DNA from: a virus
Lineage: Duplodnaviria > Heunggongvirae > Uroviricota > Caudoviricetes
IMG/VR virus record: IMGVR_UViG_3300021256_002164
Coordinates: 1 to 64,000 of that record
Length of the DNA stretch: 64,000 nucleotides
Reading direction: 5' to 3' (one strand)
The translations under genes were made by a program, and so were the position numbers. The notes beneath the pieces were generated by a model that saw only the letters and a program-made list of their open reading frames with translations, did not search any database and was not told the DNA's origin. Positions 5,662-45,235 of this stretch are shown here, in pieces (position 1 is the first letter of the stretch; the number at the start of each line of letters is the position of its first letter).

Positions 5662-5989
5662 GGGGCTATTTTGGATTTGATTGGATATGTGACTTTAAGA
5701 ATCATGCAGGAGTGTTGAATCCTTAAATTTGACAAAACAATAAATGACGATAATTTTGAATATCGTATGGCTGCCTAACCTTTAGAAGGTTGATAAATAT
5801 CTTTAGGGCATATGCCGGCGCAGTGAGAACCTTTATTAAGGTCGTAGCAACAGAAGCCTCACAAACTACTTCAAACCATAATAATGTTAATCAGGTGAAA
5901 CATAAGTGAACTACATATATTTATAAAAGCATGTAATAAGTTCTTTTAGAAGTGTATTTAAGACGTGGGTTCGAGTCCCACTAGCTCCA
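5662..5989 (+). ncRNA. ssrA: tmRNA (SsrA)
   Basis: 5' end GGGGCTATTTTGGATTTGATTGG resembles the canonical GGGGCUGAUUCUGGAUUCGAC. 3' tRNA-like domain has T-arm GTGGG-TTCGAGT-CCCAC. Acceptor strand TAGCTCC pairs with 5' GGGGCTA, followed by discriminator A. Internal tag ORF …GAC GAT AAT TTT GAA TAT CGT ATG GCT GCC TAA (…DDNFEYRMAA*) ends at 5778. A terminator hairpin follows at 6010..6038. Confidence 0.7.
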
Positions 5990-6009
5990 CAAAATAATTA
6001 AATAATATA

Positions 6010-10326: not shown

Positions 10327-11505
10327 TTATTCAACAGTTACCCAATACTCATTCGTTTCTTTATCAATAATAGATATAACATTATCTGCAGAAATACAAA
10401 TACCAGTACCAGCAGTATAAATATTTCCATTAGTTATTTTATTAATCCAGTCTTCTTGTGTTCCTGTATATCCAAATTCTTGGGCAATTTCAAATGCTGA
10501 TTTTCCTGATACACCAGTAGCACCTTGAATACCTTGTTCACCATTTAATGATACTAACCAGTCAGTTTCATTATCAATTTGACCACCGAAATCTTTATAT
10601 ATTTCAAATGCAGATTTTCCTGATATACCAGTTGCACCTTGTAATGTATTTAGCCATTCTGTAGTAGTTCCAGTAAATCCTGCTTCAATAGCTACTTCAT
10701 ATGCTGATTTACCTTCAGGTCCTTGTAATGTTCCTGCAGGTTTCCATTTATCATCTATAGAAGTATATTCATCATTATATACATAGAATTTTCCACCTAC
10801 ATTATATGCATCACCTAAAGAATTAATAGTATCAATAGTTGCTTCTTTTAATTCTTCAAGAGTATCATAATATCCAATAATATTAATTGATGCACCAGGA
10901 TCACCTTTCTCGCCTTGGTCACCTTTATCACCTTTAAGAGATTCTAGCCATTCTCTTTCTGTTCTAGTAAATCCATAATCTTGTGCAATTTGAAATGCAG
11001 ATTTTCCGTCAAGTCCATTAGTACCTTTTAATGATTCTAACCATTCAGGTTTTTCCATATAAGGATATCCTTGAGATTGTTGGTATTCAACATATACATC
11101 ATATGGAGTTTTTGCATAAGTTAAAAATTGGTTTTGTACCCATGAAATAGTTGCTAAATCATCATAACCACGTAATTGAGAAATACGAGTAGGAATTTCT
11201 GATTTATCAGCTTTATTTTGTAATTGACTATATATTAATTCTATTTGTGATAATAATTCTCCTGTAGAATTAATATAAGTATCTAATTGTGGTAAATATG
11301 CATTATTCCAGTCAATATCAACAGCATTAATAAAAGATGTATTTATATTTTCATCTATACTTAATTGTTTTGTAACAATATCATATTTATGATTACGTGT
11401 AACTAAATCAGATTTAGTTCTTTTAGTTATAAATCCATCAATAGTTTCATCAGTATTAACGGTAAACTGGATATTATTTAAAATTAAATTGTAATTATCT
11501 GCCAT
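10327..11505 (-). CDS. tail fibre protein with phage-tail-fibre repeats (Phage_fiber_2-like)
   Basis: Repeats GKSAFEIAQ.(F/Y)G(F/Y)TGT..EWL.SLKG…G.QG match the known 'phage tail fibre repeat' consensus (G.SAYE.A...GF.GTE.EWL.SLKG). Confidence 0.7.
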   Translation of the reverse strand: MADNYNLILNNIQFTVNTDETIDGFITKRTKSDLVTRNHKYDIVTKQLSIDENINTSFINAVDIDWNNAYLPQLDTYINSTGELLSQIELIYSQLQNKADKSEIPTRISQLRGYDDLATISWVQNQFLTYAKTPYDVYVEYQQSQGYPYMEKPEWLESLKGTNGLDGKSAFQIAQDYGFTRTEREWLESLKGDKGDQGEKGDPGASINIIGYYDTLEELKEATIDTINSLGDAYNVGGKFYVYNDEYTSIDDKWKPAGTLQGPEGKSAYEVAIEAGFTGTTTEWLNTLQGATGISGKSAFEIYKDFGGQIDNETDWLVSLNGEQGIQGATGVSGKSAFEIAQEFGYTGTQEDWINKITNGNIYTAGTGICISADNVISIIDKETNEYWVTVE

Positions 11506-11531
11506 ATTTATTTAAATATTATTTACATATT

Positions 11532-13304
11532 TTAATAATTAAGTACTATCGCACTATTAATTGTTTCACTACTAATATAAATAATCATGTACTCAATATT
11601 TTTAATTAGTTGTGTAGGAACATTTGTAGATTTAGTTTCTAATACTATATTTGGTTCTATAACACCATCAATATTTATTGGGAAATTTCCTACAGTAACT
11701 GGTTTACTATTAATTATTATATTATTATTATCAATAGTTATATATTGACTAGGTATAATCATATATAATCCACTATCTATATCAATATTTTCAAATTTAT
11801 TATTAAGAATATTAAATACATTATATTGCGTATTTTGAACCATTGGACATTGACCAATTAGTTTACTATTAGCAATAAAGTCTATACAATTATCAGTAAA
11901 TTGATTATTCTCAATAATCTTATTTATATTTGAACCATCAGTAAACCATAAGTAATTATAATATTCAGGTTTAACTACATTAAATGTTAATCTTGCCGAA
12001 GTATTATCTTCATTAACAGCTGTATGATTATTATATGTAACTGTAATTTTTCCTGTAGTAGTTGTATTTCCAGCTGTTACTATATAATTATTTAATGTTC
12101 CACCAGAAATATTAAATACTGCTTTATTAGTTACATTCTCGGGAGCAGAACCATCATTATAATAAACAGTAACAGTTCCTTTATTAATTACAAATTGTTC
12201 TCCTGATATATATCTATCTTTAACTGTAGGAATACTATATCCTGTCCAAACAACTTTATCTATAACATCTACAGGACTTATACCACTATGTCTAATATCT
12301 AATACATCTTCTTCTAATTTATCAATACGACTATCTCCAAGTAATCCATTTTCATTAGTCATAAGTTCATTTTTAATTTTAGTTAGCTCATTACTCATAT
12401 ATTCAGATGATTCAGCAGATTCACCAAATAATGCTTGTATAGAATTAAACATTTCATTAACATAATTATTAAATGTACTAGTAATTTGTAATAATTTTCT
12501 ATCTAATTCTGTTTTAGATATATATTCTGTAGAATCAAATTCATTTATTTTTTGAGTATTATCAGATACTTGTTGTTGAATAATATCAAGACTATTAGAT
12601 AAAAGTGTTACATTATTAGATAATTCAGATAATGCTTCTTCACTTTCTATATCATGTGCTAGTACATCATTTTTTAATTCAGTAATACTATTATTATAAT
12701 TATTAATTTCTTGCTGTAAAATATTATAAGAATCCCTTAAATCATTTTTACTAACATAAGTTTCTTCTAAATTTAATAATCTTGTATTTTGCTCTTCATT
12801 AACTTGAGATAATTGAGAAATAGTATTAGATATATCTTGAATATTATTTGTTAATTCTTGATTTATATTATTTTGCGTTGTTTCAGATTCAGATAAATGA
12901 TCTTGAATATTTTTGATAATATTTTGATAGTTTTCTATTGTTCTATGTATAGGAGCTAAATATGTATTTTTTAGTTGTGTTCTTGTTATCAAATCAGATA
13001 AACCTAACTCTTCTAATTGCTCTCCATATGCAGCAAGAATATTGTTTATTTCTTCAATAGTATCTGCATTTTTTAAATCAGAAATAATATCATCTTTAAT
13101 ATGTTGTGAAAAATATTCTAATAATGATTGTACTGTTTGTTTATAATTTCGTCCAGGTTCTCCATTACCTGGAGCAGGATATGCTAATAATAAATATGAA
13201 TTATTTAATATTTGAGTATCTTCATTACTAATTTCTGTTAAATCTGATATTCTTGAAAGTTGTTCTCTATTTGATTGTATAATTAAATCTTCTGTAGCAG
13301 CCAT
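11532..13304 (-). CDS. tail fibre / fibre-proximal protein with long N-terminal coiled coil
   Basis: ~330 aa of heptad-like Asn/Glu/Leu-rich coiled coil, then a β-rich Asn/Thr-rich C-terminal domain; first gene of the minus-strand fibre block. Confidence 0.5.
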   Translation of the reverse strand: MAATEDLIIQSNREQLSRISDLTEISNEDTQILNNSYLLLAYPAPGNGEPGRNYKQTVQSLLEYFSQHIKDDIISDLKNADTIEEINNILAAYGEQLEELGLSDLITRTQLKNTYLAPIHRTIENYQNIIKNIQDHLSESETTQNNINQELTNNIQDISNTISQLSQVNEEQNTRLLNLEETYVSKNDLRDSYNILQQEINNYNNSITELKNDVLAHDIESEEALSELSNNVTLLSNSLDIIQQQVSDNTQKINEFDSTEYISKTELDRKLLQITSTFNNYVNEMFNSIQALFGESAESSEYMSNELTKIKNELMTNENGLLGDSRIDKLEEDVLDIRHSGISPVDVIDKVVWTGYSIPTVKDRYISGEQFVINKGTVTVYYNDGSAPENVTNKAVFNISGGTLNNYIVTAGNTTTTGKITVTYNNHTAVNEDNTSARLTFNVVKPEYYNYLWFTDGSNINKIIENNQFTDNCIDFIANSKLIGQCPMVQNTQYNVFNILNNKFENIDIDSGLYMIIPSQYITIDNNNIIINSKPVTVGNFPINIDGVIEPNIVLETKSTNVPTQLIKNIEYMIIYISSETINSAIVLNY

Positions 13305-13443
13305 ATTAAATTATATAATATTATACATTTATATTTAATAATAATTTTATATACTATCTTATATTTTAAAATTATCTATTATTATTAGCCTATTTTATAT
13401 ATGAATAATTTTATATGTTTAAATATATTTCTAGTTAAAATGA

Positions 13444-13602
13444 TATGGAAACTAATCAACAATTAACACATAAAGATAAAGTTAAAGTCGTTAAAGAAAA
13501 GTTTAGTAAATTTACTAATTATTTATCTGATGCAAAAAATGTAGAAGAAATATTACCAAACAAAATAGATAATGAACAAGCTACAGAAATAAGTAATGAA
13601 TA
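13444..13602 (+). CDS. small hypothetical ORF (52 aa)
   Basis: ATG…TAA open frame (METNQQLTHKDK…); below the ORF-track length cutoff; speculative. Confidence 0.2.
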
Positions 13603-13623
13603 AATATATGTTTAATTTTTATA

Positions 13624-13899
13624 ATGGAATCTTTATTATGCGATAGAATTAAAATGTTAAAAGTAATTGATAATATTGAAGATGAGCTTCGATATATTAA
13701 AAATGAATTGAAAAAAGTATCTATTTTAGAAGAAGTTACTAATGTTAATGATGTAACTCAAGATACTAAGCATCCAGAGAAAGAAGAAATTATTCTAAAT
13801 AAAAAAGAAAAAGTTAAAGCTAATAAATTTGATTCAACTTTAGATACTGGATATACAGATTATTATGATATGAATAGTAGACCAGAATTTCACATTTAA
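13624..13899 (+). CDS. hypothetical protein
   Basis: 91-aa ORF upstream of the polymerase; no motifs. Confidence 0.35.
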   Translation: MESLLCDRIKMLKVIDNIEDELRYIKNELKKVSILEEVTNVNDVTQDTKHPEKEEIILNKKEKVKANKFDSTLDTGYTDYYDMNSRPEFHI

Positions 13900-13988
13900 T
13901 TTTATAAATATTTAACAGTTTAATTAGTAATAAAATCTCTTGATGAGATATGTTATATATAGTAATAACATTTAAGAATTTTTAGATT

Positions 13989-16328
13989 ATGATATTAGAT
14001 AGAACATGGAGTAAAAAAGAACAAAAATTAACAGTTTCTTATATTGATAAATTAGGTAATAGACAATTTTATCAAAAGTATTTACATCATATTAAAAGCT
14101 ATGAGTATAATCCTAATGGCGATTTAGAAACTTGGGATGAAAAGAAATGTAGTAAAATTTTTAAAGATACCACAGATTATACGCCAAATGAATTTGAAAT
14201 ATTAGAGTATTTATATGAATTGCCCGAAGATTTAAATAAGGCTATGCATGCTCAATATTTTCCAAAGGTATATTCATTTGATATTGAAACTGAAGTTAGT
14301 GATGAATTTCCTGATCCTGAAATTGCTGCTCAAAAAGTAACTGCGATATCATTAGTTGGTCCTGATTTATCATGTATTGTATATGGACTTCACCAATTGA
14401 ATGAAGCACAAATTGAATTATTTAGAAAGAGATATATAGATTGGCTTCATGCTAATGAATTTGCAACAGCATTAATTAATAAGAATAATTGGAAGCCTAA
14501 AGTATTATATCAATATTTTCCTACTGAAGAAGAAATGCTTGAGCATTTTTTCACAGTGATTATTCCAAAAATCAGTTGTTTATCTGGATGGAATAGTTAC
14601 GGATTCGATATGTTATATTTGACTCATCGAATTGAAAGATTATTTGGTAAGAAGATTGCTATGAATATGATTTATAAAGCATCTCCAACAGGTGAAATTA
14701 AAAAGTATTCATGGGAAGATATGAATGGTGATAAGAAATTTTTCTGGGGTCCTGCTCATTCAGTTATTATTGACTATATGCTGGTAGTAAAACAATATGA
14801 TTATACATTAAGACCTTATGAAAGCTATTCATTGGATTGGGTAGGAAGTCATGCTGTCAATGCTCATAAAATTAAATATGAAGGAACATTGCAGCAATTA
14901 TATGAAAGAGATCCTGAATGGTATTATTTCTATAATGCTGTTGATAGTTTGATTACTGAATTAATTCATTATAAGCTTAAGTCTCTTGAATCGCCTTGTG
15001 CAACATCAGCAGTAACATTAGTATCATTATTAAGTGCATTTGGACAAGTTGCATTAGGAACAGCAAATGTATTTGAAGAATTTTATGAGCAAAATAAGAA
15101 AGTAGTATGGGATTATGATGCTATTGAACGTACAAAAATTCCATATGAAGGTGCATTTTGTGGATGTGTTCCTGGTCGTTATGAATTTACAGTTTGTGAT
15201 GATTTTGCTTCACTTTATCCGTCTCAAGTTCGTACATGTAATATATCATTTGAAAATCTTATCCAAGCTAAAGATGGACCAGATAGTTTTGGAAGATATA
15301 TACCAAGAAATTGGACTCCTGAAGAACTAGAAGAATTCAAGAAAGACCCAAACTATTTTGTTACTGTTATGGGTAATGTATATAAGAATGATAAAGACTA
15401 TGCATTCAGACGTATTCAAGCAAAGTTAAAGAGAAATAGAGATAAATATAAATATACAGGACAACGTGTAGAATCAGAAGCATTAGTATATATTGATGAT
15501 ATACTTTCAGGAAAACAATCAAATATTGTATTTGATGATGATGTAAATAAGCTCTTAACTGAAAAGTTTGCATTCTTAGGTGAAAATCCTCAACAATATA
15601 TTAAGAATATGTCTAAGCAAGAATTAGAATTATTTAGAGTTGATGTTGAAGATTTACGACATGAACATTGGCTTCTTGAGAATGCTATGAAAACATCAGG
15701 TAATGGATTATATGGCTGTTGTGCAAATAGATTTTTCTATTTCTATAATATGGCTTTAGCAGGTGATATTACTGGTGAGTGCCGTAATCTTACAAAGACA
15801 ATGTGGAATAATCTTGAATATTTCTTCCATGAAACTTTATGGGAAAGAAAAGACTTATGGAAAGAATTTGACTTTGAACTTGATGAAAGTATGCATGATT
15901 GGTATAGAGAACAACCTATCTCTATATATTCCGATACTGATAGCTTGGCAAAAAAATCATTATTATTAATTAAAGATACTAAAAATATTAAAAATAAAAT
16001 AACTATTGAAGATTTATTTAATCAATCTTTAGATAAAAATGGTTTATCAGATATAACACAGAATAATCAAGAAATAGTTAAGTGTGATCAACAATGTTTA
16101 AATTGGACTAAGGAAAATGGATTACAATATGTACCTATTAAATATATTATGAGACATAAAGTATCTAAAGAACAATTTAAAATTAAAACAAAATCGGGTA
16201 AAGAAATTATAGTTACAGGAGATCATTCTTGTATAGTTTTTAGAAATGGAAAACAATTAACTATTAAAGCTAGAGATATAAATAAATCTACTGATAAGAT
16301 TTTATCAATAATTAATAATGAAGAATAA
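13989..16328 (+). CDS. family-B DNA polymerase, N-terminal cistron (exonuclease plus motifs A, B, C) ending in an N-terminal split-intein fragment
   Basis: Exo I FDIETE, Exo II YGFDMLYL, Exo III YYFYNAVD. Motif A DFASLYPS, motif B KTSGNGLYG, motif C YSDTD|S. After DTD comes a ~128-aa Hint N-terminal half (SLAKK…TGDHSCIVF = intein block B), then stop. Confidence 0.85.
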   Translation: MILDRTWSKKEQKLTVSYIDKLGNRQFYQKYLHHIKSYEYNPNGDLETWDEKKCSKIFKDTTDYTPNEFEILEYLYELPEDLNKAMHAQYFPKVYSFDIETEVSDEFPDPEIAAQKVTAISLVGPDLSCIVYGLHQLNEAQIELFRKRYIDWLHANEFATALINKNNWKPKVLYQYFPTEEEMLEHFFTVIIPKISCLSGWNSYGFDMLYLTHRIERLFGKKIAMNMIYKASPTGEIKKYSWEDMNGDKKFFWGPAHSVIIDYMLVVKQYDYTLRPYESYSLDWVGSHAVNAHKIKYEGTLQQLYERDPEWYYFYNAVDSLITELIHYKLKSLESPCATSAVTLVSLLSAFGQVALGTANVFEEFYEQNKKVVWDYDAIERTKIPYEGAFCGCVPGRYEFTVCDDFASLYPSQVRTCNISFENLIQAKDGPDSFGRYIPRNWTPEELEEFKKDPNYFVTVMGNVYKNDKDYAFRRIQAKLKRNRDKYKYTGQRVESEALVYIDDILSGKQSNIVFDDDVNKLLTEKFAFLGENPQQYIKNMSKQELELFRVDVEDLRHEHWLLENAMKTSGNGLYGCCANRFFYFYNMALAGDITGECRNLTKTMWNNLEYFFHETLWERKDLWKEFDFELDESMHDWYREQPISIYSDTDSLAKKSLLLIKDTKNIKNKITIEDLFNQSLDKNGLSDITQNNQEIVKCDQQCLNWTKENGLQYVPIKYIMRHKVSKEQFKIKTKSGKEIIVTGDHSCIVFRNGKQLTIKARDINKSTDKILSIINNEE
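15942..16325 (+). mobile_element. N-terminal intein fragment (IntN-like, ~128 aa) inserted at PolB motif C
   Basis: Begins with Ser directly after YSDTD; contains the block-B-like VTGDHSCIV; terminates at a stop codon with no endonuclease domain in frame. Confidence 0.65.
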
Positions 16329-17565
16329 CGAATTTTATCATACTAGTATAGACATTAAAGAATATCCCTTTGATATAATATCTTTAGAAGAAGTTAATCA
16401 AGAACTAATACAATTAGTTAAAAAATTTAATTCTTCTAAAGATATTAATGAGAAAAAAGAATTATCTAAACAAATACCTATTGAATTTCCTAAATGTCGA
16501 TTTTGCGGAAATATTATTATAAATTCAAATTTTTTAATAAATTTAAAACAAAAAAATAAAACAATACAATTAATATTACCATCAGTTTATTACCGTGAAA
16601 TAGATGGAAAAAAATATTATTTAAGTTGTTGTGAAAATTGTTTATTAGAACATTTTAAAGATAATCCGCCTAAAGCACCTAAATATTATTTTATGAAAGC
16701 AAATATTTATGGTCAATATTGTTTTGGATATTCTGATGAAGAATATAAAAAAATATGTTCAATGACAGTTGGTGTAACATATAATTCAATGATTAATAAA
16801 TGGGGTAAAGAATTAGGAGAGAAAAAATGGAAAGAATATCGTGATAAACATTCAAAAATAGCGTCTAAACAATATTTTATTGATAAATATGGTAAAGAAG
16901 AAGGATTAAAAATCTATCATGATTCGAGAGCAATAACTAAAAAGGGAATGATAAAGAAATATGGTAAAGAACTTGGTTTAGAAAAATGGAAAGAATATTG
17001 TGATAAACAAAAAATAACTAAATCATTTGATTATATGATTAATAAATTTGGATATGATAAAGCAATTCAAATTAATAAATCTAAAGCATTAACATTAGAT
17101 AATTTTATTAGAAAATATGGAGAAGAATTAGGCAATAAAAAATATATAGAATTTACAAAAAGGCATATTAATTTTTATTCTAATATTTCTCAAAAATTAT
17201 TTAATGAATTAGATAAATATTTATCAGAAAAATATACAACATATTATGCAACTAAAAATTATGAATATCCTATTAAATTATTAGATAAATATGTTTGTTT
17301 AGATTATTATATTAAAGAATTAAATATATGTATTGAATTTAATGGAAGTATATTTCATGGAGAACCTCGATTATATAAAGATAATGATAAATGTAATCCA
17401 TTTATTAATTTAACTGCTAAAGAAATTAGAGATAATGATCAAAAAAGATATAATTTACTAAAAGAATTATATAATATTAATACATATATTATTTGGGAAT
17501 TAGATTATAATAAAAATTTTAATATACAAGACTATATTATAAAAGTATTAAAAATTAATATATAA
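16318..17565 (+). mobile_element. free-standing homing-endonuclease-like gene inside the fractured polymerase
   Basis: Separate frame, overlaps the upstream stop by 11 nt. N-terminal Cys4 zinc ribbon (CRFCGN…CCENC). Four ~30-aa repeats (KYGKELGLEKWKEYCDKQ…). C-terminal Vsr/PD-(D/E)xK-like nuclease core LDYYIKELNICIEFNGSIFHGEP. Confidence 0.6.
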
Positions 17566-17570
17566 TAATT

Positions 17571-18539
17571 ATGTTAGAATATCAATTTGAAGAAATAGAA
17601 AGTATTGAACAACTAGACAATTTTAATGATGAATATGTTTATGATATAGAAGTAGATGATAATTCTCATACTTTTATAGCAAATGATATATTAGTTCATA
17701 ATTCGGTTTATACAACTTATGGTACATTATTCCGTTGTATGACACCAAAATATCAAGAAAAGTATAAAGATAAGAAAACAAAAGTAGATTGGATATTGAA
17801 TTTTAATAAGAAATTTGTAGATAAGCAAAATAACCAATGGTGTGAAGAAATGTATAATCCTCGTCATGGCAAGAATGTTCATGAGTTTGAATTAGAGACT
17901 GTTTCATATTCACAAATTTGCTTAAAGAAAAAGAAATATCTTAAAGGTTATGCGTTTGTTAAAGGTAAGTTTTACGATAAGCCAAAAGTAAGTGGAACAG
18001 GTATTGAACTTATTAAATCAACTACACCAGCATTATGTAGAGAGATTCTTTCAGACTTAATGAATAGTCTTATGTTTGAATATGATGAAGACCATAAGAA
18101 AGAATATATTCTTGAGTTTAATATGAAATTAGCTAATTATAGGAAACAATTCTATTCTGCTCCATTTGAAGATATATCTCAATCTATAGGTGTTGGTAAT
18201 TATAAAAAGTATGTTATTGATGACGAAGATGATTTACTATTAGGAAAACAATGTCCAGTATCAGTTCAAGCTATAGCACGATATAATTATTTAGCACATA
18301 AGAATGGACAAGATAATCTTAAGCAATATTCAGGTAAGATTAAATATTATAATGTTAAGATAGGTAATACAGATGGATATTTTGGTTTTCCTGCTGGCGA
18401 GCTTCCTGAATGGGCACCACCTATGAATAAAGAAATGCAATGGAGAAAAACAATTATAGACCCAATTAATCGTTTCTTGGAAGTTATGGAGATTCCATTG
18501 GTAAATGCTGGAACAGCTCAGCAATTAACATTATTTTAA
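17571..18539 (+). CDS. family-B DNA polymerase, C-terminal cistron beginning with a C-terminal split-intein fragment
   Basis: First 44 aa MLEYQ…VYDIEVDDNSHTFIANDILVHN are intein blocks F/G ending HN, then S+VYTTYG restores the motif-C context (YSDTD-SVY). Downstream KKKY (KKRY motif) and a thumb region. Confidence 0.85.
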   Translation: MLEYQFEEIESIEQLDNFNDEYVYDIEVDDNSHTFIANDILVHNSVYTTYGTLFRCMTPKYQEKYKDKKTKVDWILNFNKKFVDKQNNQWCEEMYNPRHGKNVHEFELETVSYSQICLKKKKYLKGYAFVKGKFYDKPKVSGTGIELIKSTTPALCREILSDLMNSLMFEYDEDHKKEYILEFNMKLANYRKQFYSAPFEDISQSIGVGNYKKYVIDDEDDLLLGKQCPVSVQAIARYNYLAHKNGQDNLKQYSGKIKYYNVKIGNTDGYFGFPAGELPEWAPPMNKEMQWRKTIIDPINRFLEVMEIPLVNAGTAQQLTLF

Positions 18540-18595: not shown

Positions 18596-18856
18596 TTGAT
18601 AATAAATATATTCAAATTACCAGTTATGAGCATAATTTTATTTCTATGTTTTATAGGTTTATTGTATGCTTTATATAAAATTACGAAAAATATAGATAAA
18701 GAAATACATGATAATTATATAAAGATACAAGACCAAATAAAACAATTAAATGATGAGTATGTAAATGGTAAATATGATTTTGAAACGTATAAAGAAAAAA
18801 AGAACGCATTATTTAAATCATATCATATACCTCTTAATTATAAAGAAGACCTTTAA
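18596..18856 (+). CDS. small membrane protein
   Basis: N-terminal TM helix (LPVMSIILFLCFIGLLYALY); followed by a terminator. Confidence 0.45.
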   Translation: MIINIFKLPVMSIILFLCFIGLLYALYKITKNIDKEIHDNYIKIQDQIKQLNDEYVNGKYDFETYKEKKNALFKSYHIPLNYKEDL

Positions 18857-18870
18857 AGGTCTTCTTTTTT
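18843..18870 (+). terminator. Rho-independent terminator
   Basis: aagaagaccttt-aaa-ggtcttctt hairpin followed by TTTTTT. Confidence 0.75.
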
Positions 18871-19762: not shown

Positions 19763-21709
19763 ATGAGCAACAAAGTTTTTGGTATCGATTTGGGTACCGG
19801 TAATTCATGTGTAGCTGTTATTGAAAATGGAAAGGCTACAGTTATTGCAAATGCTGAAGGTAATCGTACAACTCCTTCAGTAGTTTTTATTAAGGGTGAT
19901 GAACGTAAAGTTGGAGGTTCAGCTAAACGTGGTATGATTATGAACCCTAAGAATACAGTATCTTTCATTAAGCGTTTTATGGGTGCTGAATGGCAAGATG
20001 CAGATGTACAAAAGATGTTGACTATGGTAACTTATGAAGTAGTTAACAAAAATAATAAGCCGTATATTAAGATTGATGGTAAAGAATATTCTGCTGAGGA
20101 AATCTCTTCATATATTCTTGCTGACCTCGCAAAGGTTGCATCAGAATATTATGGTGAAGATGTAAAGAAGGTTGTTATTACTGTTCCTGCATGGTTCAAT
20201 GATGTTCAACGTAAGGCAACACAACTTGCTGGCGAACTTGCTGGACTTGAAGTTCTCCGTATTATCAATGAGCCTACCGCAGCTATTCTTGCAGCTGGTA
20301 TGGATAAAGAAGATAAGGAACGTCTTGTACTTGTAAATGACCTTGGTTGTGGTACTGAAGATGTATCTATTTGCGAAGTTTCACAAGGAATCGTTGAAGT
20401 TCTTGCATCTGATGGTGATGTATTCCTTGGCGGTCAAAACTATGATAATGAAATTGTAAATTGGTTGGCCGATGAATTTATGAAGGACCATGCTGGTGTT
20501 GATTTACGAAAGGATCCTATGGCATATGCACGTTTGGTTGAAGCTGCAGAAAAAGCAAAATGTGAATTGTCAACCGCAACACAAGCTGAAATCAATCTTC
20601 CTTATATTACTGTTATTGATAGTGTTCCTCAAATGTTGGTAACCACATTGACTCGTGCTAAATTTGAATCACTTACAAAGCAATATACAGATAAGGTAAT
20701 TGAAATTGCAAAACGTGCTCTTGAAAAGGCAGGTAAGACTTCTGCAGATATTACAGATATTCTTCTTGTTGGTGGTTCTTCACGTATGCCACAAGTACAA
20801 GAAGCACTTAAGAATGCATTTGGTGATAAACTTAATAAGCAATCTAATTTTGATGAAGCAGTTGCACTTGGTGCAGCAACTCAAGCTAAAGCAATTGCAA
20901 ATCCTGAAGAAGGTGATACATTGCTTCTTGATGTAACTCCTATTTCACTTGGTATTGAAGTTAATGGCAATATGTTTGGTAAGCTTGTAGATGCTAATAC
21001 AACTATTCCATGTAAGAAATCACAAATCTTTACAACAGCGGTAGATAATCAACCTGCAGTATCAATCGTAGTTCTTCAAGGTGAACGTCCTATGAGTAAG
21101 GATAATAAGCAAATTGGTATATTCAACCTTGATGGTATTGCTCCTGCCCCTCGTGGAATTCCTCAAATTGAAGTAACATTTGATATTGATGCTAATGGTA
21201 CTTTGACAGTAACTGCTGTTGATAAGGGTACTAATAAGGAACAGCATATTACTATTTCAGATTCTAATACTCTATCACAAGATGAAATTGATAGAATTAA
21301 GAAGGAAGCTGAAGAACATAAAGCTGAAGATGATAAGAAGAAAGCTGAGTTTGAAAAGAAGAATGAAGCTGAAGGATATATCTATTCAGTTGAAAAATCT
21401 TTGAATGATGAACAATTTAAAGATAAGTTTACTGAAGATGAAAAGAAGCAACTTGAAGACCTTGTAAAGGAAGCTAAGGAAGCAATCGATTCTAAAGATG
21501 ATGAAAAGATGTTTTCTAAGAAAGAAGAACTTGAAAAGGTATATGCTCCTATCATTACACGTATCTATCAAGAATCAATGCCTAAGGACCAACAAGGTAA
21601 TCCCCAAGTAGATCCTAATATGTTCAAAAATATGTTTGGTAGTGGTAATTTTGCTACAGGTGCAGATTTTGATCCATCAAAGTTTACACAAGCAAAACCG
21701 AATAATTAA
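19763..21709 (+). CDS. dnaK: Hsp70/DnaK-family chaperone (divergent)
   Basis: IDLGTGNS (cf. IDLGTTNS), [10 protein letters not shown] (cf. DLGGGTFDVS), VGGSSRMP (cf. VGGSTRIP), [14 protein letters not shown], charged C-terminal lid. GC content higher than flanks. Confidence 0.85.
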
Positions 21710-21771
21710 TATATAAAACTCTCAATGGGATTCTCATTTGAGAGTCCCTATATAAATATATTCAAAAATAA

Positions 21772-22215
21772 TTGGAGGTAATTATTATGACAAACGCTTT
21801 AGATTTTTTCAATTTTGGTAAATCGTCTATTTTCGACAATTGGTTCGACAATTTTGGTATGATTCCAACAAACTTTACCAATTCCCCAAAGGTTAATGTA
21901 AAGGAAACTGATAAAGCTTATGAAATAGAAATTGCCAATCCTGGTTTCTCTAAAGATGAAACAAAAATTGAGGTTAAGAATGGTATTATTACTGTTTCAA
22001 TGACTTCTGAAAGTAAAGAAGGTGAAGGAACAGAAGATAAGTATCATGTTAAACAATGGAGTAAATCATCTTATGAGGAATCTTGGAATCTTCCAGAAAA
22101 TGTAATTGATGACCAAATCTCAGCAAAGAATGTTGATGGGGTTCTTACAATTACATTACCTAAACGAGAGGAAGATACTAAGAAAGAAGAACCAAGGACC
22201 ATTACTATTGAATGA
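21772..22215 (+). CDS. small heat-shock protein (Hsp20/α-crystallin family)
   Basis: α-Crystallin domain ending …AKNVDGVLTITLPK. A GGAGGT ribosome-binding site precedes the ATG. Confidence 0.8.
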   Translation: MEVIIMTNALDFFNFGKSSIFDNWFDNFGMIPTNFTNSPKVNVKETDKAYEIEIANPGFSKDETKIEVKNGIITVSMTSESKEGEGTEDKYHVKQWSKSSYEESWNLPENVIDDQISAKNVDGVLTITLPKREEDTKKEEPRTITIE

Positions 22216-22218
22216 TAT

Positions 22219-22262
22219 TTATTTTGGGTGGGACTTAAAAATCTCACCCAAATTTTTCTATT
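22219..22262 (+). terminator. Rho-independent terminator after the sHsp gene
   Basis: tttgggtg…cacccaaa hairpin followed by a TTTTTCTATTTT run. Confidence 0.6.
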
Positions 22263-22290
22263 TTATTATATTAAATATATTTGAAGTATT

Positions 22291-22926
22291 ATGACAGAAT
22301 TAAGCTTAATTGCACAAAATTATTTAACAGATAAAGGTTGTACATATTTTAATTCTCATTGTTATACTGAAATTTATAATTCTTATTTTCAAAAACTTAA
22401 GAATAAAAATAGAAAAGTATATATTTTAGAAATTGGAGTACAAGCAGGATATGATTTATTAATGATGAATGATTATTTTGAAGGCAATTGTGAAATATAT
22501 GGTTTTGATATTAATATAAATACTTTAGAAGTTGAATTACCTGATAATATTCATATATTTGAATTAAATGCTGCAAGTATACCAGAGTTAAATAAATTTT
22601 ATTCAAACTTAATACATTGGTCAGTAAATAAAATGCCTCAATTTGATATTATTATTGATGACGGTTCCCATGAGTCACAAGATATATTAACATCTTTATA
22701 TTTTTTCTATCTTATGTTATCTTATGATGGTATATATATTATAGAAGATTTACATGCAGAATCAGCAAAAGAAGCATTAAATTATTTAACATTTAATGAG
22801 TCAAATAATATTAATATGGATGATGTAACAAAAAATATACAAAGTAAAACTATACATTATATTTGTAATTCCTATTGTATAGACTATGATAGTTCTATAT
22901 GTGCAGTTTTAACATTTAAAAAATAA
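22291..22926 (+). CDS. class I SAM-dependent methyltransferase
   Basis: Motif I-like VYILEIGVQAG and motif IV-like IIIDDGSH (TylF/FkbM-like O-MTase architecture). Confidence 0.55.
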   Translation: MTELSLIAQNYLTDKGCTYFNSHCYTEIYNSYFQKLKNKNRKVYILEIGVQAGYDLLMMNDYFEGNCEIYGFDININTLEVELPDNIHIFELNAASIPELNKFYSNLIHWSVNKMPQFDIIIDDGSHESQDILTSLYFFYLMLSYDGIYIIEDLHAESAKEALNYLTFNESNNINMDDVTKNIQSKTIHYICNSYCIDYDSSICAVLTFKK

Positions 22927-27751: not shown

Positions 27752-30700
27752 TTACTTATTTTCTAATATTTGTATTCTATCTTCTAATTCTTTAATCTTT
27801 TTAAATACAGCGCCAACAATTTTACTTAATGCTGAATTATAGTTTACAGAATATAAATTAGTATCAAGATTCAAATCTACTGCTTCAGGAATTATATCTT
27901 GTAAATATTGTGCAATAAATCCATTAGTATTCCTATTATTACCTTTCCAATCAAAATTATATACTATATCATTTTGATTAAATAATTTATTAATAAATTC
28001 TTCTGAAATAGGATTAATATTTTCTTTTAATGATATATCTGAATTTGCAAATAATTCTCCACTTTTAGCATATGCAGTAGAAACAAATATTTGGTTTTTA
28101 TAACCTGCAGAATTACCACTAAAACCTGCAATATATACATTATTTGATCCAGGACTTGCTGCATAAATTTTCAATGCACCAGTATTTCCACCTACACCAG
28201 TTGAACCAATATATACATCACCATTTGGTCCTTGTGCACCTGTTACAGCATTTCCTGCAATAGGTCCTTTTGCACCAGTAAAACCTTGAATAGCAGTACC
28301 TGCTGTACCAGTTCTACCTTGAACACCTCGGTTGTCATCACCTTTAGGACCTTGCGCTCCTGTTGTACCTTGAGTTCCTGGTTTAGTACCTTGTGAACCA
28401 GTTACACCTTGTATAGTTGCACCAGGTTTACCTTGACGTCCTATGTCACCTTGATTGTTTGAACCTTGAGGACCTTGCGCTCCTGTTTTACCTTGAGTTC
28501 CTGGTTTAGTACCTTGTGAACCAGTTACACCTTGTATAGTTGCACCAGGTTTACCTTGACGTCCTATGTCACCTTGATTGTTTGAACCTTGAGGACCTTG
28601 TGCACCAGTTTTACCTTGAGCTGATGGTTTAGTACCTTGTAAACCAGTTACACCTTGTGGACTTATACCTAATGCACCATCGCGTCCTTTATATCCTTGG
28701 TTATAAGAACCTGTAGGACCTTGAGCACCAGTTTTACCTTGAGCTGATGGTTTAGTACCTTGTGAACCAGTTACACCTTGTGGGCTTATACCTAATGCAC
28801 CATCACGTCCAGTATATCCTTGGTTATAAGAACCAGTAGGACCTTGTGCACCAGTTTTACCTTGAGCTGATGGTTTAGTACCAACAGTACCAGTTGTACC
28901 TTGTATACTTAATCCATTCGCGCCATTACGTCCAGTATATCCTTGGTTATAAGAACCTGTAGGACCTTGAGCACCTGTTGTACCTTGAGCTGATGGTTTA
29001 GTACCAGTAGTACCAGTTGCACCTTGTATACTTAAACCATTTGCACCTTTACGTCCAGCATATCCTTGGTTATTCGAACCTGTAGGACCTTGAGCACCTG
29101 TTGTACCTTGAGCTGATGGTTTAGTACCAACAGCACCAGTTATACCTTGTGGACTCAAACCATTCGCACCTTTGCGTCCATCATATCCTTGGTTATAAGA
29201 ACCTGTGGGACCTTGTGCACCTGTTGTACCTTGAGTTGATGGTTTAGTGCCAATACCACCAGTTACACCTTGTGGACTCAAACCTTTTGCACCAGTTCTA
29301 CCTTGTATACCAGGCCAATCACTACCAGTTACACCTTGTGCACCAGTTGAACCTTGAATACCTCTTGGCCCAATATCACCTTGTCTACCTTGAGTATTAT
29401 TTATAATACCTTGTGTTCCTTGACGTCCTTGAATACCTGTATATCCAGTAGGACCTTGTTTACCTTGAACACCAGTTCTACCTTGAACGCCTTGTTTACC
29501 ATCAATACCTTGTCTACCTTGAGTTGTATTTTCTATACCTTGTGGACCTTCTCGACCTTGAGCACCAGTAAGACCTCTAGAGCCTTGTGCTCCTTGTGTA
29601 CCCGTTGGACCTTGAATACCTCGTTTAGTACCATCAATACCTTGTCTACCTTGAGTTGTATTTTCTATACCTTGTGGACCTTCTCGACCTTGAGCACCAG
29701 TAAGACCTCTAGAGCCTTGTGCTCCTTGTGTACCCGTTGGACCTTGAATACCCATTGTACTAGATTTAATACCTGTTCTACCTTGCGTTGTATTTTCTAC
29801 ACCTTGAGGTCCTTCTCGTCCTTGTGTACCAGTATATCCAGTAGGACCTTGAATACCTTGCGCACCAGTTCTACCTTGAATACCTTGCTTAGACGCAGTA
29901 AGACCAGTTCTGCCCTGTATTATATTTTCTACACCTTGAGCACCTTCTCGTCCTTGTGTGCCAGTATATCCAACAGGTCCTTGGGCACCTTGTGTACCAG
30001 TAGGACCTTGAATACCTCTTGTACTAGATTTAATACCTGTTCTACCTTGCGTTGTATTTTCTACACCTTGTGGACCTTCTCGTCCTTGTGTACCAGTAAA
30101 ACCAATAGGTCCTTGAATACCTTGAGCTCCTGTTGTACCTTGAATACCTTGCTTAGAAGATGTAAGACCAGTTCTTCCTTGTGTTGTATTTTCTATACCT
30201 TGTGGACCTTCTCGACCTTGTATACCAGTAAAACCAATTGGACCTTGAATACCTTGAGCTCCTGTTCTTCCTTGAATACCTTGCTTAGAAGATGTAAGAC
30301 CAGTTCTACCTTGTATTATATTTTCTACACCTTGCGCACCTTCACGTCCTTGTGTACCAGTATATCCAGTAGGACCTTGAATACCTTGAGCTCCTGTTCT
30401 TCCTTGAATACCTTGCTTAGAAGATGTAAGACCAGTTCTACCTTGCGTTGTATTTTCTATACCTTGTGGTCCTTCTCGTCCTTGTGTACCGGTATATCCA
30501 GTAGGACCTTGAATACCTTGAGCTCCTGTTCTTCCTTGAATACCTTGCTTAGAAGATGTAAGACCAGTTCTACCTTGAATTGTATTTTCTACACCTTGAG
30601 GGCCTTCACGTCCTTGTATACCAGTATATCCAATAGGACCTTGAATACCTTGAGCTCCTGTTCTTCCTTGAATACCTTGCTTAGAAGATGTAAGACCAGT

Positions 30701-31726
30701 TCTACCTTGAATTGTATTTTCTACGCCTTGCGGGCCTTCTCGACCTTGTGTACCAGTAAAACCAATTGGACCTTGAATACCTTGAGCACCCGTTGTACCT
30801 TGAATACCTTGCTTAGAAGATGTAAGGCCAGTTCTGCCTTGAGTTGTATTTTCTACACCTTGCGCACCTTCTCGTCCCTGTGTACCAGTAAAACCAATTG
30901 GACCTTGAATACCTTGAGCTCCTGTTGTACCTTGAATACCTTGCTTAGAAGATGTAAGACCAGTTCTTCCTTGTGTTGTATTTTCTACACCTTGCGGACC
31001 TTCTCGTCCTTGTGTACCAGTAAAACCAATTGGACCTTGAATACCTTGTGCACCTGTTGTACCTTGAATACCTTGTTTAGAAGATGTAAGACCAGTTCTT
31101 CCTTGTGTTGTATTTTCTACACCTTGTGCTCCTTCTCGTCCTTGCGTACCAGTATATCCTGTGGGGCCTTGAATACCTTGAGCACCAGTTCTACCTTGAA
31201 TACCTTGTTTTGATGATGTAAGACCAGTTCTGCCCTGAGTTGTATTTTCTACACCCTGCGCTCCTTCTCGTCCTTGTATACCAGTATGACCTGTTGTACC
31301 TTGTGCTCCTTGTGCTCCAGTTACACCTTGCATACCAATCATACCAATTATACCAGTTCTACCTTGAGCGCCCATAATTCCTCGTACACCAGTTAATCCA
31401 TAATTTCCTCTTAACGGATATCTAGGAACCCATTGAGAACCATTATATGAATATAAATATTCATTATTCTCTTCAACATTTATGAAAATATCTCCTTCTT
31501 GAATATCTTCTGTTGGTTGAGTAGTACCCCAATAACATTTTGATCCTCTCTGTAATGTTGTTTGAATTTTATCAAGTATGTCTTTTTTATTAAAAAATTC
31601 TATACCTTGAGAATAAATAATTCTATTGTCATCAGCAGTTTCAAATAAAATATGATAACTATTTTTATTTTCTGCTACAGCATTTCTAGAAAGTCCTAAT
31701 CTAATATTTTGCTTAATAATACCCAT
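27752..31726 (-). CDS. collagen-like tail fibre protein with C-terminal intramolecular-chaperone (peptidase S74) domain
   Basis: ~100-aa N-terminal head, then ~1070 aa of G-X-Y triplets in ~44-aa tandem units (QGREGAQGVENTTQGRTGLTSSKQGIQGRTGAQGIQGPTGYTGT). C-terminus SDISLKENINPISEEF…GFIAQYLQDIIPEAV…LEDRIQILENK matches the S74 auto-chaperone consensus. Confidence 0.8.
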   Translation of the reverse strand: MGIIKQNIRLGLSRNAVAENKNSYHILFETADDNRIIYSQGIEFFNKKDILDKIQTTLQRGSKCYWGTTQPTEDIQEGDIFINVEENNEYLYSYNGSQWVPRYPLRGNYGLTGVRGIMGAQGRTGIIGMIGMQGVTGAQGAQGTTGHTGIQGREGAQGVENTTQGRTGLTSSKQGIQGRTGAQGIQGPTGYTGTQGREGAQGVENTTQGRTGLTSSKQGIQGTTGAQGIQGPIGFTGTQGREGPQGVENTTQGRTGLTSSKQGIQGTTGAQGIQGPIGFTGTQGREGAQGVENTTQGRTGLTSSKQGIQGTTGAQGIQGPIGFTGTQGREGPQGVENTIQGRTGLTSSKQGIQGRTGAQGIQGPIGYTGIQGREGPQGVENTIQGRTGLTSSKQGIQGRTGAQGIQGPTGYTGTQGREGPQGIENTTQGRTGLTSSKQGIQGRTGAQGIQGPTGYTGTQGREGAQGVENIIQGRTGLTSSKQGIQGRTGAQGIQGPIGFTGIQGREGPQGIENTTQGRTGLTSSKQGIQGTTGAQGIQGPIGFTGTQGREGPQGVENTTQGRTGIKSSTRGIQGPTGTQGAQGPVGYTGTQGREGAQGVENIIQGRTGLTASKQGIQGRTGAQGIQGPTGYTGTQGREGPQGVENTTQGRTGIKSSTMGIQGPTGTQGAQGSRGLTGAQGREGPQGIENTTQGRQGIDGTKRGIQGPTGTQGAQGSRGLTGAQGREGPQGIENTTQGRQGIDGKQGVQGRTGVQGKQGPTGYTGIQGRQGTQGIINNTQGRQGDIGPRGIQGSTGAQGVTGSDWPGIQGRTGAKGLSPQGVTGGIGTKPSTQGTTGAQGPTGSYNQGYDGRKGANGLSPQGITGAVGTKPSAQGTTGAQGPTGSNNQGYAGRKGANGLSIQGATGTTGTKPSAQGTTGAQGPTGSYNQGYTGRNGANGLSIQGTTGTVGTKPSAQGKTGAQGPTGSYNQGYTGRDGALGISPQGVTGSQGTKPSAQGKTGAQGPTGSYNQGYKGRDGALGISPQGVTGLQGTKPSAQGKTGAQGPQGSNNQGDIGRQGKPGATIQGVTGSQGTKPGTQGKTGAQGPQGSNNQGDIGRQGKPGATIQGVTGSQGTKPGTQGTTGAQGPKGDDNRGVQGRTGTAGTAIQGFTGAKGPIAGNAVTGAQGPNGDVYIGSTGVGGNTGALKIYAASPGSNNVYIAGFSGNSAGYKNQIFVSTAYAKSGELFANSDISLKENINPISEEFINKLFNQNDIVYNFDWKGNNRNTNGFIAQYLQDIIPEAVDLNLDTNLYSVNYNSALSKIVGAVFKKIKELEDRIQILENK

Positions 31727-44800: not shown

Positions 44801-45235
44801 ACGTAAACCATTAAGCTTATCTGCTTCTAAAGTCCAGAAACGAGTTGTATCGTAAATATCTTCAACTTTAAGTTCTACTTGATCAATTGGATCTAATGTT
44901 GGATTAAATTGAGAAGAAATTGTTGCACCACCGACTGTTTCATTATTGAATTTCTTCAAGTTTAAAACAAGACAAGGTGAAACTTGAAGCATTTGAATCG
45001 CTAAGCGATGGAAAAATACTCCACGTTTTTCTAATTTCTTATTAATACCTCCAAACATTGATACAAAAGTCTGTGGGTCTTTAATATATACAGGAGTATT
45101 AAAAGGACCTTGTTCAGAATAACCAACAACGAGTCTTAATAATTCTGTATCATAATTTACAATAGTTGATTTATCAAAAACAACACGATAAATTCCCGCA
45201 GCTTTAAAATTTTGTAAATGAACTGGAATTGACAT
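41879..45235 (-). CDS. contractile tail sheath protein (gp18-like, enlarged)
   Basis: N-terminus AAGIYRVVFDKS…GPFNTPVYIKDPQTFVSMFG parallels T4 gp18 SPGIELKETTVQS…GPAFQIKQVTNEVDLVNTFG. C-terminus …EMAVLSTHIEPG…ELTLYRT parallels …EFVATFYIQPARSINYITLNFVAT. Confidence 0.7.
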   Translation of the reverse strand: MSIPVHLQNFKAAGIYRVVFDKSTIVNYDTELLRLVVGYSEQGPFNTPVYIKDPQTFVSMFGGINKKLEKRGVFFHRLAIQMLQVSPCLVLNLKKFNNETVGGATISSQFNPTLDPIDQVELKVEDIYDTTRFWTLEADKLNGLRDIYGKTMDEYINIAITDTKKTSCSVFIRKASGLKVSQYNITVQDWYSDNPGEMPEFLEKYRNNLISDFFAEIYVFRGQFTAKQVLASDTLKNYFIVEKNINNLDENGHPTLELRLREKVYDAFGDPVDTLDMLYNDMTSHPVGHYIGCLIPEFKNKNNSYAALDILFNSDIDIHNMMMSFNTDLLYEYEGTVIDLSGRLQIPTKEGAEDKKVYNTHLTLDDIYNGTATTSVLGNLNAPVIADKLAIHTNATKSVFNTKTGAYEEQGIVPFIAKSKRSISGTLYVSAVTKTEIELRQVATGETVTVNFDGVEFGQNSDGQLRDASDIAAEKFGVVFDHDIEGKKFMVDSETKTDDETGEAIQVYALKNGMGTSWSYESAYIEPEDGSHEELIPYGHSCRVCGPEKVITSINNLEKPDATNKYLYTDINEDLRVSFLDVQFVTESKYTNQTVADGDSVYGTSISFIDYADDVEYGTGEPWQWGEQQIIPMVYQEMLYTTNYYDRSLLSILKPGDCLLAEDMIVDYDQDGELEDEQDYFCDAVYVQETGTKYYTEDDIKEEQEKIANGEIDAVNHPELVHKVGDFYFHYVVLTGKPMIWPADEDLMRPVDNKYLVRMDAPLNQEIGTMKPLYLEGYVYEMTRPDGVGMWAKEQWQKQILSVLSEYKGLRTALLNKSEIDYRYVIDTFASFPDSSIKKELSYLCKQKQSAFCIANFPSVQTFTKCPYASFTDSKNVFDVQYVVKGCNRKKASSVSFSLPDDGEGASFIAFYTPLKFSDGYIDNIIPSAGLVSNLFIEKYMTRQPYYIVAGPNYGRVYASGMVGPDYKYSVDELQIIEPFGVNCMVYRPNFGTFINANQTAKQIPLSALSKVHVRELVIYLQDEVEKVLQAYQWEFNNSRTREAILARANDICARIMSNGGLQAYLNIMDESNNTPEIIDNEMAVLSTHIEPGMGCGKMVHELTLYRTGQMMSTIKGS

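Follow-up and report, generated by a model that had tools for sequence, protein, structure and literature searches.

The stretch of DNA analysed here (the window; 64,000 nucleotides (nt), positions 1 to 64,000 of IMG/VR record IMGVR_UViG_3300021256_002164, from a 203-kb Caudoviricetes scaffold of 27% GC) carries a family-B DNA polymerase gene (polB) in two pieces with a putative homing-endonuclease gene between them. Three open reading frames (ORFs) lie head to tail on the plus strand, ORF1 (13989..16328; 779 amino acids (aa)), ORF2 (16318..17565; 415 aa) and ORF3 (17571..18539; 322 aa), all exactly where a first-pass annotation of the bare sequence had placed them; their subdivision is given in Table 1. 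ORF2 is in a frame other than that of ORF1 (frame +1), as that annotation had also stated; its ATG opens an 11-nt overlap with the end of ORF1 (ATGAAGAATAA), and its 3′ end is separated from ORF3 by a 5-nt gap, with no overlap in the window. ORF1 and ORF3 were said to share a frame and to be kept apart by stop codons, which is confirmed: 79 stops, with TAA, TGA and TAG all represented, lie between them. Therefore the two cannot be joined by a single frameshift or by stop-codon reassignment, and reassignment as in Lak phages was set aside because all three stops are present in the gap. The common frame was also considered as a trace of a former single ORF, yet it is best taken as a coincidence, because the two polB cistrons are in different frames in a close relative, a 473.6-kb contig (L005).

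Concatenating the polymerase portions of ORF1 and ORF3 (the N- and C-exteins) gives a protein of 929 aa (651 + 278; 109.8 kDa), rather than the ~1060 aa first estimated for the spliced product. The exteins together carry Exo I-III, motifs A, B and C and KKxY in a motif search, and the concatenate aligns with RB69 gp43 in one continuous alignment (E value 4e-36, residues 93-863) that runs across the junction (YSDTDSVY in the window, YGDTDSIY in RB69 gp43). The host gene is thus predicted to encode a T4/RB69-type family-B DNA polymerase; it is ~30% identical to the PolB of Lak phages. An origin from a giant virus, considered for the AT-richness, the Hsp70 gene and the occurrence of PolB inteins, was rejected given the T4/RB69-type polymerase, a probable tail-fibre gene with collagen repeats and a Peptidase_S74 domain, and nearest relatives that are phage contigs.

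Searching with the ORF3 extein retrieved six IMG/VR phage contigs with an uninterrupted polB, 66-73% identical to the window in the C-extein and, in five of the six, 71-73% identical in the N-extein as well. In every one of them the N-extein match stops and the C-extein match starts at adjacent nucleotides in the same frame, at ...CYSDTD|SVY... (in L006, for example, the DNA reads TGCTATTCGGATACTGAT|TCTGTATATGTAACA). These alignments identify the six as empty-site alleles and place the break in the window PolB exactly at the intein insertion point, directly after the DTD of catalytic motif C and before the serine. The same polymerase is also found split in a second way, independently of any intein: in P0155, P0198 and ~30 similar 413-aa proteins, which are close relatives, polB is intein-free at motif C (YSDTDSVY contiguous) and the C-terminal cistron begins at about residue 515 of the window PolB.

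ORF1 runs on past motif C for 128 codons (15942-16325 without the stop), and ORF3 opens with 44 residues that precede the C-extein. The first-pass annotation had taken the former for a Hint half-domain with a block-B-like motif and the latter for an IntC-like start, and both assignments held when the flanks were compared with intein profiles. The N-terminal intein half (IntN) matches TIGR01445 (intein_Nterm; ORF1 residues 665-747) at 33.0 bits over an NCBIfam cut-off of 24.5, and the C-terminal half (IntC) matches TIGR01443 (intein_Cterm; ORF3 residues 22-45) at 30.5 bits over a cut-off of 15.6; Pfam Intein_splicing matches both halves slightly under its gathering score. Among solved structures, IntN matches PDB 9HTH (E value 3e-10), IntC matches 8CPN, the PolB16 intein (1e-7), and 9HTH (7e-5), and the weaker matches of the two halves are inteins without exception. 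PDB 9HTH is the Aes123 PolB1 intein, from the polB of a T4-like Aeromonas phage, a naturally split Ser1/Ser+1 intein of 120 + 39 aa that trans-splices in vitro (PMC11923092).

The fused halves of the window were aligned with seven homologues at the same DTD|S site, from two metagenomic megaphage contigs, one other metagenomic relative and Aeromonas, Campylobacter, Tenacibaculum and Vibrio phages. S1, H72, T92, H95, D153, H161, H171, N172 and Ser+1 (S173) are invariant in all eight. The histidine of the NX motif (H72) is preceded by arginine or lysine in each of them (IMRHKV in the window), a feature described as confined to Ser1 inteins (Pasch et al. 2023, PMC10189870). IntC is free of cysteine and the three cysteines of IntN (C48, C52 and C97) occupy non-catalytic positions, so that despite them the splicing chemistry is predicted to be cysteine-independent. 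The two halves are of opposite charge, as is typical of natural split inteins: IntN is basic (net charge +8, isoelectric point 9.4) and IntC acidic (−13, 4.1). Judged by these sequence features, the flanking segments are the two halves of a predicted class-1 Ser1/Ser+1 split intein.

A search with IntN for a contiguous (cis) ancestor returned short IntN-bearing ORFs (87-221 aa) and no long polB, a negative that says little because this word-indexed search also missed known ORF1-type relatives (775-941 aa). Two short metagenomic ORFs (P0249 and P0259) carry IntN homologues, 72-78% identical over about half of IntN, together with Pfam matches to RNA polymerase alpha (PF01000) or NifU_N (PF01592), which hints that related intein halves may sit in other host genes.

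The layout recurs in relatives. The IntN/endonuclease/IntC stretch of an independent Logan assembly of run SRR873596 (L004) is identical to that of the window, and the layout is thus not an assembly artefact. The same three-cistron order, with separate starts for each cistron, is found in L005, in every other sampled endonuclease context (L015-L020) and in phages Lak-B5, Aes509, F379, PTm1 and VPALA; by our count, 86 of the best 120 ORF3 homologues begin with IntC. The overlap of ORF1 with the endonuclease gene is kept at 4-14 nt in L005, L015 and L017, which suggests translational coupling. One homologous locus (L018) comes from run SRR873603 of the sheep-rumen study of Shi et al. 2014, and because this neighbouring run belongs to that study, the window sample is very probably sheep rumen too.

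ORF2 returned no family in Pfam or NCBIfam scans, only sub-threshold noise (TRASH, E value 0.002), and falls in a PHROG of unknown function. Its homologues number 371, and all those sampled lie within a fractured PolB. The AlphaFold model (predicted local distance difference test score (pLDDT) 88.7) has three parts: a beta-rich four-cysteine (Cys4) domain (residues ~10-150), five helix-hairpin repeats (helices at 155-282, in five pairs) and an alpha/beta domain (289-410). In 30 homologues, down to 41% identity, C60, C63, C105, C108, E316, D329, E340 and H347 are invariant and N342, G343, D374, R377 and E394 nearly so; the glycines of the repeats (G163, G167, G216, G220, G245 and G272) are conserved. 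The Cys4 motif and Vsr-like core read from the bare sequence are borne out, the former by its four invariant cysteines, whereas the four repeats counted there are five in the model.

The nuclease domain is modelled with a Vsr-type variant of the restriction-endonuclease fold, and its putative active site comprises E316, D329, E340, N342, H347 and D374. Each of D329, E340, N342, H347 and D374 is invariant or at least 90% conserved in the 30 homologues. In the hhalign register against E. coli Vsr, itself of only 3.7% probability, D329 pairs with D51, E340 with F62, N342 with H64, H347 with H69 and D374 with D97. The same pattern has been reported for I-Bth0305I, the active site of which consists of D196, N208, H213 and D222, together with an acidic residue that is conserved where Vsr has F62 (Taylor et al. 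2011). Neither phmmer with ORF2 nor a profile of the 30 homologues recovered Vsr or I-Bth0305I (3R3P) from the PDB sequences, and the family call therefore rests on the fold and the active-site pattern; by tblastn, ORF2 matches proteins of Aes509 and PTm1 (E values 1e-10 to 1e-18) that their GenBank records call 'VSR endonuclease'. On the strength of the model and the active-site pattern, the ORF2 nuclease is assigned to the Vsr-like/EDxHD homing-endonuclease family. The earlier suggestion that it might represent an undescribed family does not stand, as the catalytic part belongs with the Vsr-like/EDxHD enzymes, a family that Dassa et al. 2009 discovered in fractured genes; nor is the repeat-plus-Vsr layout new, having been described for EDxHD enzymes, which also carry repeated N-terminal DNA-binding motifs (NUMOD 2 repeats; PMC3239194).

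The repeats of ORF2 gave no NUMOD profile match in the Pfam scan; presumably they form an extended DNA-binding region, and the Cys4 domain is presumed to be a zinc-binding module for DNA recognition. Modelled alone, the Cys4 domain reaches a pLDDT of 91 and a predicted template modelling score of 0.80, with no fold match among solved structures. An exhaustive HMMER scan found it in 15 of 1.84 billion cluster representatives, mostly proteins of ~400-430 aa, which is the size of the ORF2 endonuclease. Thus it is this N-terminal domain alone that appears to be undescribed. All empty and reconstituted insertion sites contain the pseudo-palindrome ATACnGAT|TCnGTAT (5-7 of 7 symmetric pairs), centred 1 nt 5′ of the insertion point. 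I-Bth0305I is homodimeric and recognizes a pseudo-palindromic site (PMC3239194), and the fit of the motif to such recognition is only a hint, the sites being homologous and constrained by the DTDSV codons.

Selection was compared between the window and L005 by synonymous divergence (dS) and the ratio of non-synonymous to synonymous rates (omega). The dS is 0.46 for IntN, 0.53 for the endonuclease and 0.55 for IntC, about half of that for the exteins (1.07 and 1.22), although values near or above 1 in a genome of 27% GC are close to saturation and serve for ranking only. The omega values are 0.18 for IntN and 0.16 for IntC, 0.17 and 0.15 for the exteins and 0.50 for the endonuclease. The intein halves are thus under purifying selection and constrained like the polymerase, and the endonuclease less so. 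Identity to the counterparts in Aeromonas, Campylobacter and Lak phages is 41-77% for the intein halves and ~30-38% for the endonuclease but only 21-31% for the host PolB, so the cassette is much better conserved across phages than its host gene. A patchy distribution, empty sites within the clade and a cassette younger than the surrounding gene are what a homing element predicts.

Change within the cassette is visible as well. The endonuclease is a mosaic between the window (16318-17565) and L005 (4001-5233): residues 1-235 are ~85% identical, and from ~236 on the two are ~30% identical, with one helix-hairpin repeat missing, which suggests that the nuclease domain has been exchanged. In three 404-aa proteins (P0172, P0173 and P0175), the first ~80 endonuclease residues, including the first CxxC, are fused in frame to IntC and the C-terminal part of PolB; these resemble what a deletion within the endonuclease gene would leave behind, and would represent the homing cycle in decay. 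In Klebsiella phage KP13-7 (L014; OP617745.1), which has a homologous endonuclease and IntC, the intein sits two residues earlier in motif C, with Thr+1, because the C-extein starts HN|TDSVYF. With empty, occupied and decayed sites side by side, the clade offers a natural system for the co-movement of an intein and a free-standing endonuclease.

The locus is best explained as a fractured polB, in which a split intein at motif C flanks a free-standing homing endonuclease, the polymerase precursors trans-splice to a 929-aa replicase and the endonuclease spreads the cassette; we put the probability of this reading at roughly 0.85. The first-pass annotation had proposed the same architecture, and it is upheld by the precise insertion relative to empty sites, the invariant splicing residues, the omega of 0.16-0.18 of the intein halves and a homologue with demonstrated trans-splicing, the Aes123 PolB1 intein, which occupies the same site. 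Three proteins would be made, PolB(1-651)-IntN, the endonuclease and IntC-PolB(652-929). The basic IntN and acidic IntC would associate and fold as one intein domain, and trans-splicing would proceed through an N-O acyl shift at Ser1, transesterification to Ser+1, cyclisation of Asn172 and an O-N shift to give the 929-aa polymerase with an intact motif C. The endonuclease would cut the intein-less polB of co-infecting relatives at the motif-C coding sequence, and repair of the cut allele by recombination would then bring in a copy of the complete cassette, from IntN through the endonuclease to IntC. That splicing and cleavage take place, and which site is targeted, is what we infer here. In annotation, the locus is better recorded as a single trans-spliced polymerase together with a homing endonuclease than as three genes with no relation to one another.

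Several results weigh against this reading. In vitro, splicing of the homologous natural Aes intein reached only ~30%, owing to aggregation of IntN (PMC11923092). Folding around the endonuclease start revealed no significant hairpin (z −0.3), a feature common in fractured genes. The nuclease assignment carries the low hhalign probability and the empty-handed PDB searches given above, the dS comparison its closeness to saturation, and the endonuclease both its divergence from L005 beyond residue ~235 and an omega of 0.50 against ~0.17 in its neighbours, so that it may be drifting.

The last of these points lead to the alternative that survives best, namely that the intein splices and the endonuclease no longer homes, being a drifting passenger or kept for some other function, such as shutting out or destroying the DNA of rival phages. 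It would account for the relaxed omega, for a nuclease domain that is replaced or highly diverged between the window and L005, and for deletion derivatives such as P0172, the decay stage expected of a homing cycle. However, 30 full-length homologues of as little as 41% identity keep the Cys4 site and every putative catalytic residue unchanged, the endonuclease ORF is intact in hundreds of clusters, and the cassette has about half the dS of its host gene in a clade where empty sites coexist, all of which points to recent mobility. We consider this alternative unlikely, though the likeliest of the three.

Considerably less probable is a two-subunit polymerase that works as a heterodimer without splicing, the intein halves being inert or a non-covalent dimerisation module. 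T4-like phages offer precedents for such split proteins that are not spliced, namely the PolB of Aeromonas phage 44RR (gp43A/gp43B) and the NrdA of phage Aeh1, which is fragmented (cited in PMC2677866; see also PMC3045599), and within the same clade P0155 and P0198 have polB in two cistrons split elsewhere (~residue 515) with no intein. A split of the gp43A/gp43B type would be expected to have a non-conserved linker and intein-free termini, whereas here it falls inside motif C and both termini carry intein halves, and an unremoved 172-aa domain within DTD/S would occupy the active site. Moreover, residues that serve only splicing (S1, the NX histidine, TxxH, the terminal Asn and S+1) are invariant in eight divergent inteins and under purifying selection, and the homologous Aes123 PolB1 intein splices. 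That the locus is an artefact or decaying pseudogene, a contiguous intein and endonuclease ORF frameshifted by sequencing or assembly or a dead polymerase gene, is hardly credible: the common frame of ORF1 and ORF3 and the metagenomic, AT-rich assembly would allow it, but no single frameshift or reassignment removes the 79 stops of three types, an independent assembly is identical, the layout is kept in L005, L015-L020, Lak-B5, Aes509, F379, PTm1 and VPALA with the L005 cistrons in different frames, and omega is 0.15-0.18 on exteins and intein halves.

Fractured genes were described by Dassa, London, Stoddard, Schueler-Furman and Pietrokovski in 2009 as essential replication genes broken at an intein site, with an endonuclease ORF standing free between IntN and IntC, half of their loci having Vsr-like endonucleases, mainly of phage, with overlapping junction frames (PMC2677866). 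The window shares with these loci the broken enzyme gene, the IntN and IntC ends, the free-standing endonuclease ORF and, at one of the two junctions, overlapping frames. It differs in that PolB is absent from the eight host enzyme types listed (PMC2677866), in that an upstream RNA hairpin, present in 15 of those 16 loci, was not found, and in that it is the 5′ end of the endonuclease gene that overlaps (a 3′ overlap occurs in L005, not in the window).

The closest known counterparts are the Aeromonas salmonicida phages Aes123 and Aes509 (JN377899 and JN377902), with the same T4-type polB, the same YxDTD|S site, a homologous Ser1/Ser+1 split intein (IntC 77% identical over 22 aa) and a homologous Vsr-like endonuclease gene between the halves; the GenBank annotation of Aes509 reads 'putative N-intein', 'putative VSR endonuclease' and 'putative C-intein'. 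In these phages the gene is also split upstream (gp43A + gp43B1), giving three PolB pieces, the intein, of 120 + 39 aa, lacks cysteine (that of the window, of 128 + 44 aa, has three, all at non-catalytic positions), and the host PolB is 21-28% identical to that of the window. Their endonuclease of ~353 aa matches only ORF2 residues ~152-405 by tblastn, and because the match is confined to that range, a Cys4-like domain was not detected in it.

The same polB motif-C cassette is present in PTm1 (Tenacibaculum), VPALA (Vibrio), F379 and CP21 (Campylobacter) and Prevotella Lak megaphages, the endonucleases of which are shorter or otherwise built than ORF2. The annotation of PTm1 reads 'intein-containing split DNA polymerase precursor / VSR endonuclease / DNA polymerase', and the Lak phage records are unannotated. 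In the published Prevotella megaphage Lak-B5 (L022; MK250024.1 502684-527538, reverse complement), the cassette runs from a palm fragment with IntN (11003-11821) through the endonuclease (11893-12855) and a second Vsr-like fragment (13265-13636) to IntC with the C-terminal part of PolB (13769-14773); the exonuclease part lies ~6 kb downstream (21025-22410), so that polB is scattered over at least three pieces. Further family-B polymerases with a naturally split Ser1/Ser+1 intein are PolB16 OarG (from a sheep gut metagenome; 8CPN) and the Nanoarchaeum equitans polymerase. The PolB16 N-extein ends in DTD like that of the window and its C-terminal intein region matches the window IntC (E value 1e-7), but its split is atypical (15 + 168 aa); in N. 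equitans the halves are at separate loci, with no endonuclease, in a thermophile. I-Bth0305I (PDB 3R3P; PMC3239194), the EDxHD prototype, is the product of a group I intron of recA and has 266 aa and two NUMOD2 repeats, whereas ORF2 is intein-associated, has 415 aa, five repeats and a Cys4 domain, and shows no sequence-level match to it.

The system as such is already known: its architecture was defined in 2009, a polB version is annotated in GenBank, and a homologous intein has been crystallised and its splicing kinetics published. What the window adds is a rumen phage member distantly related to the Lak phages, with a lineage-specific Cys4 domain, a mosaic nuclease and evidence of movement between phages. 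More tentatively, and at somewhat below even odds, the lineage may constitute a distinct, undescribed EDxHD sub-architecture (Cys4, five KYGxExG repeats and a Vsr-like domain) that is specialised on polB motif C and swaps nucleases, in a clade holding all stages of homing and hundreds of Ser1/Ser+1 split-intein variants. Were this so, the rumen/Lak-like megaphage clade would contain empty sites, fractured genes with an intact endonuclease and deletion remnants. The endonuclease domain without a known fold presumably reads the motif-C DNA. A homologous intein has also been engineered as a protein-ligation tool. Naturally split Ser1/Ser+1 (cysteine-independent) inteins are rare and sought for protein chemistry, and the window with its many metagenomic variants constitutes a pool of natural homologues of the Aes123 PolB1 intein.

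As to regulation, a scan for sigma-70 promoters gave 55 matches in the window vs 57 in shuffled sequence, and a single terminator-like hairpin was found (18842-18867). The motif TATAAATA is enriched in the window (63 copies vs 40 +/- 6 expected from shuffles), with many copies just 5′ of ORF starts on the matching strand (examples in Table 1), and may serve this phage as a T4-late-like promoter motif. The same motif occurs upstream of fractured-gene endonucleases (Dassa 2009, PMC2677866). The copy ahead of the endonuclease gene in the window is shared with L005; a conserved promoter was rejected for it, as it is not conserved in L015 or L017 and partly dictated by the D-I-N-K codons of the intein, and it may weakly be considered a late-promoter-like element.

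Table 1. Features of the fractured polB locus and of other parts of the window.
Feature	Position	Strand	Basis
PolB N-extein, aa 1-651; exonuclease motifs, motif A DFASLYPS, motif B KTSGNGLYG, final motif C YSDTD	13989..15941	+	phrog_262 and phrog_2062 (DNA polymerase), E 1e-65 to 1e-69
Predicted IntN, 128 aa + TAA; Ser1 (SLAKKSLLLIKD, block A), NX-motif His (IMRHKV), block B TGDH (VTGDHS)	15942..16328	+	TIGR01445, PDB 9HTH
TATAAATA within the IntN coding sequence, 34 nt 5′ of the endonuclease ATG	16277..16284	+	
Putative free-standing homing-endonuclease gene, 415 aa, own frame, own ATG and TAA	16318..17565	+	phrog_22677, E 1e-41
Endonuclease N-terminal domain, aa 1-153, invariant Cys4	16318..16776	+	
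Five helix-hairpin repeats, aa ~154-285, type xxhIxKYGxExGxxxW/YxxY	16777..17172	+	AlphaFold model
Predicted Vsr-like (EDxHD-type) nuclease domain, aa 286-415	17173..17565	+	
Predicted IntC, 44 aa; block F VYDIEVDDNSHTF, block G ILVHN, end VYDIEVDDNSHTFIANDILVHN	17571..17702	+	TIGR01443, 8CPN, 9HTH
PolB C-extein, 278 aa + stop; Ser+1 (SVYTTYG), KKKY inside	17703..18539	+	phrog_262 positions 581-846; 72-78% identity to this part of PolB in the relatives
TATAAATA, examples	13903, 16277, 18568, 18873, 21751	+	
TATAAATA, examples	1804, 2605, 25196, 26860, 45281	-	
Transfer-messenger RNA gene	5662-5992	+	ARAGORN, tag DDNFEYRMAA*; Rfam RF00023, 87 bits vs gathering score 47, full length
Hsp70/DnaK-type chaperone gene, 648 aa	19763-21709	+	Pfam HSP70, MreB_Mbl
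Probable tail fibre, 1324 aa	27752-31726	-	~20 collagen triple-helix repeats, C-terminal Peptidase_S74 chaperone domain
619-aa ORF	29354-31213	+	
1118-aa ORF	41879-45235		
2873-aa ORF	49229-57850	-	
1772-aa ORF	57954-63272	-	

Elsewhere in the window, the two giant ORFs of 2873 and 1772 aa are adjacent, and neither they nor the 1118-aa ORF have a Pfam match at E <= 0.001. The Hsp70 gene, an unusual phage cargo, lies ~1.2 kb 3′ of the polB locus. The collagen-repeat protein is probably a tail fibre to judge from its domains, and the 619-aa ORF, which lies wholly within its gene on the opposite strand, is probably an artefact of the collagen repeats.

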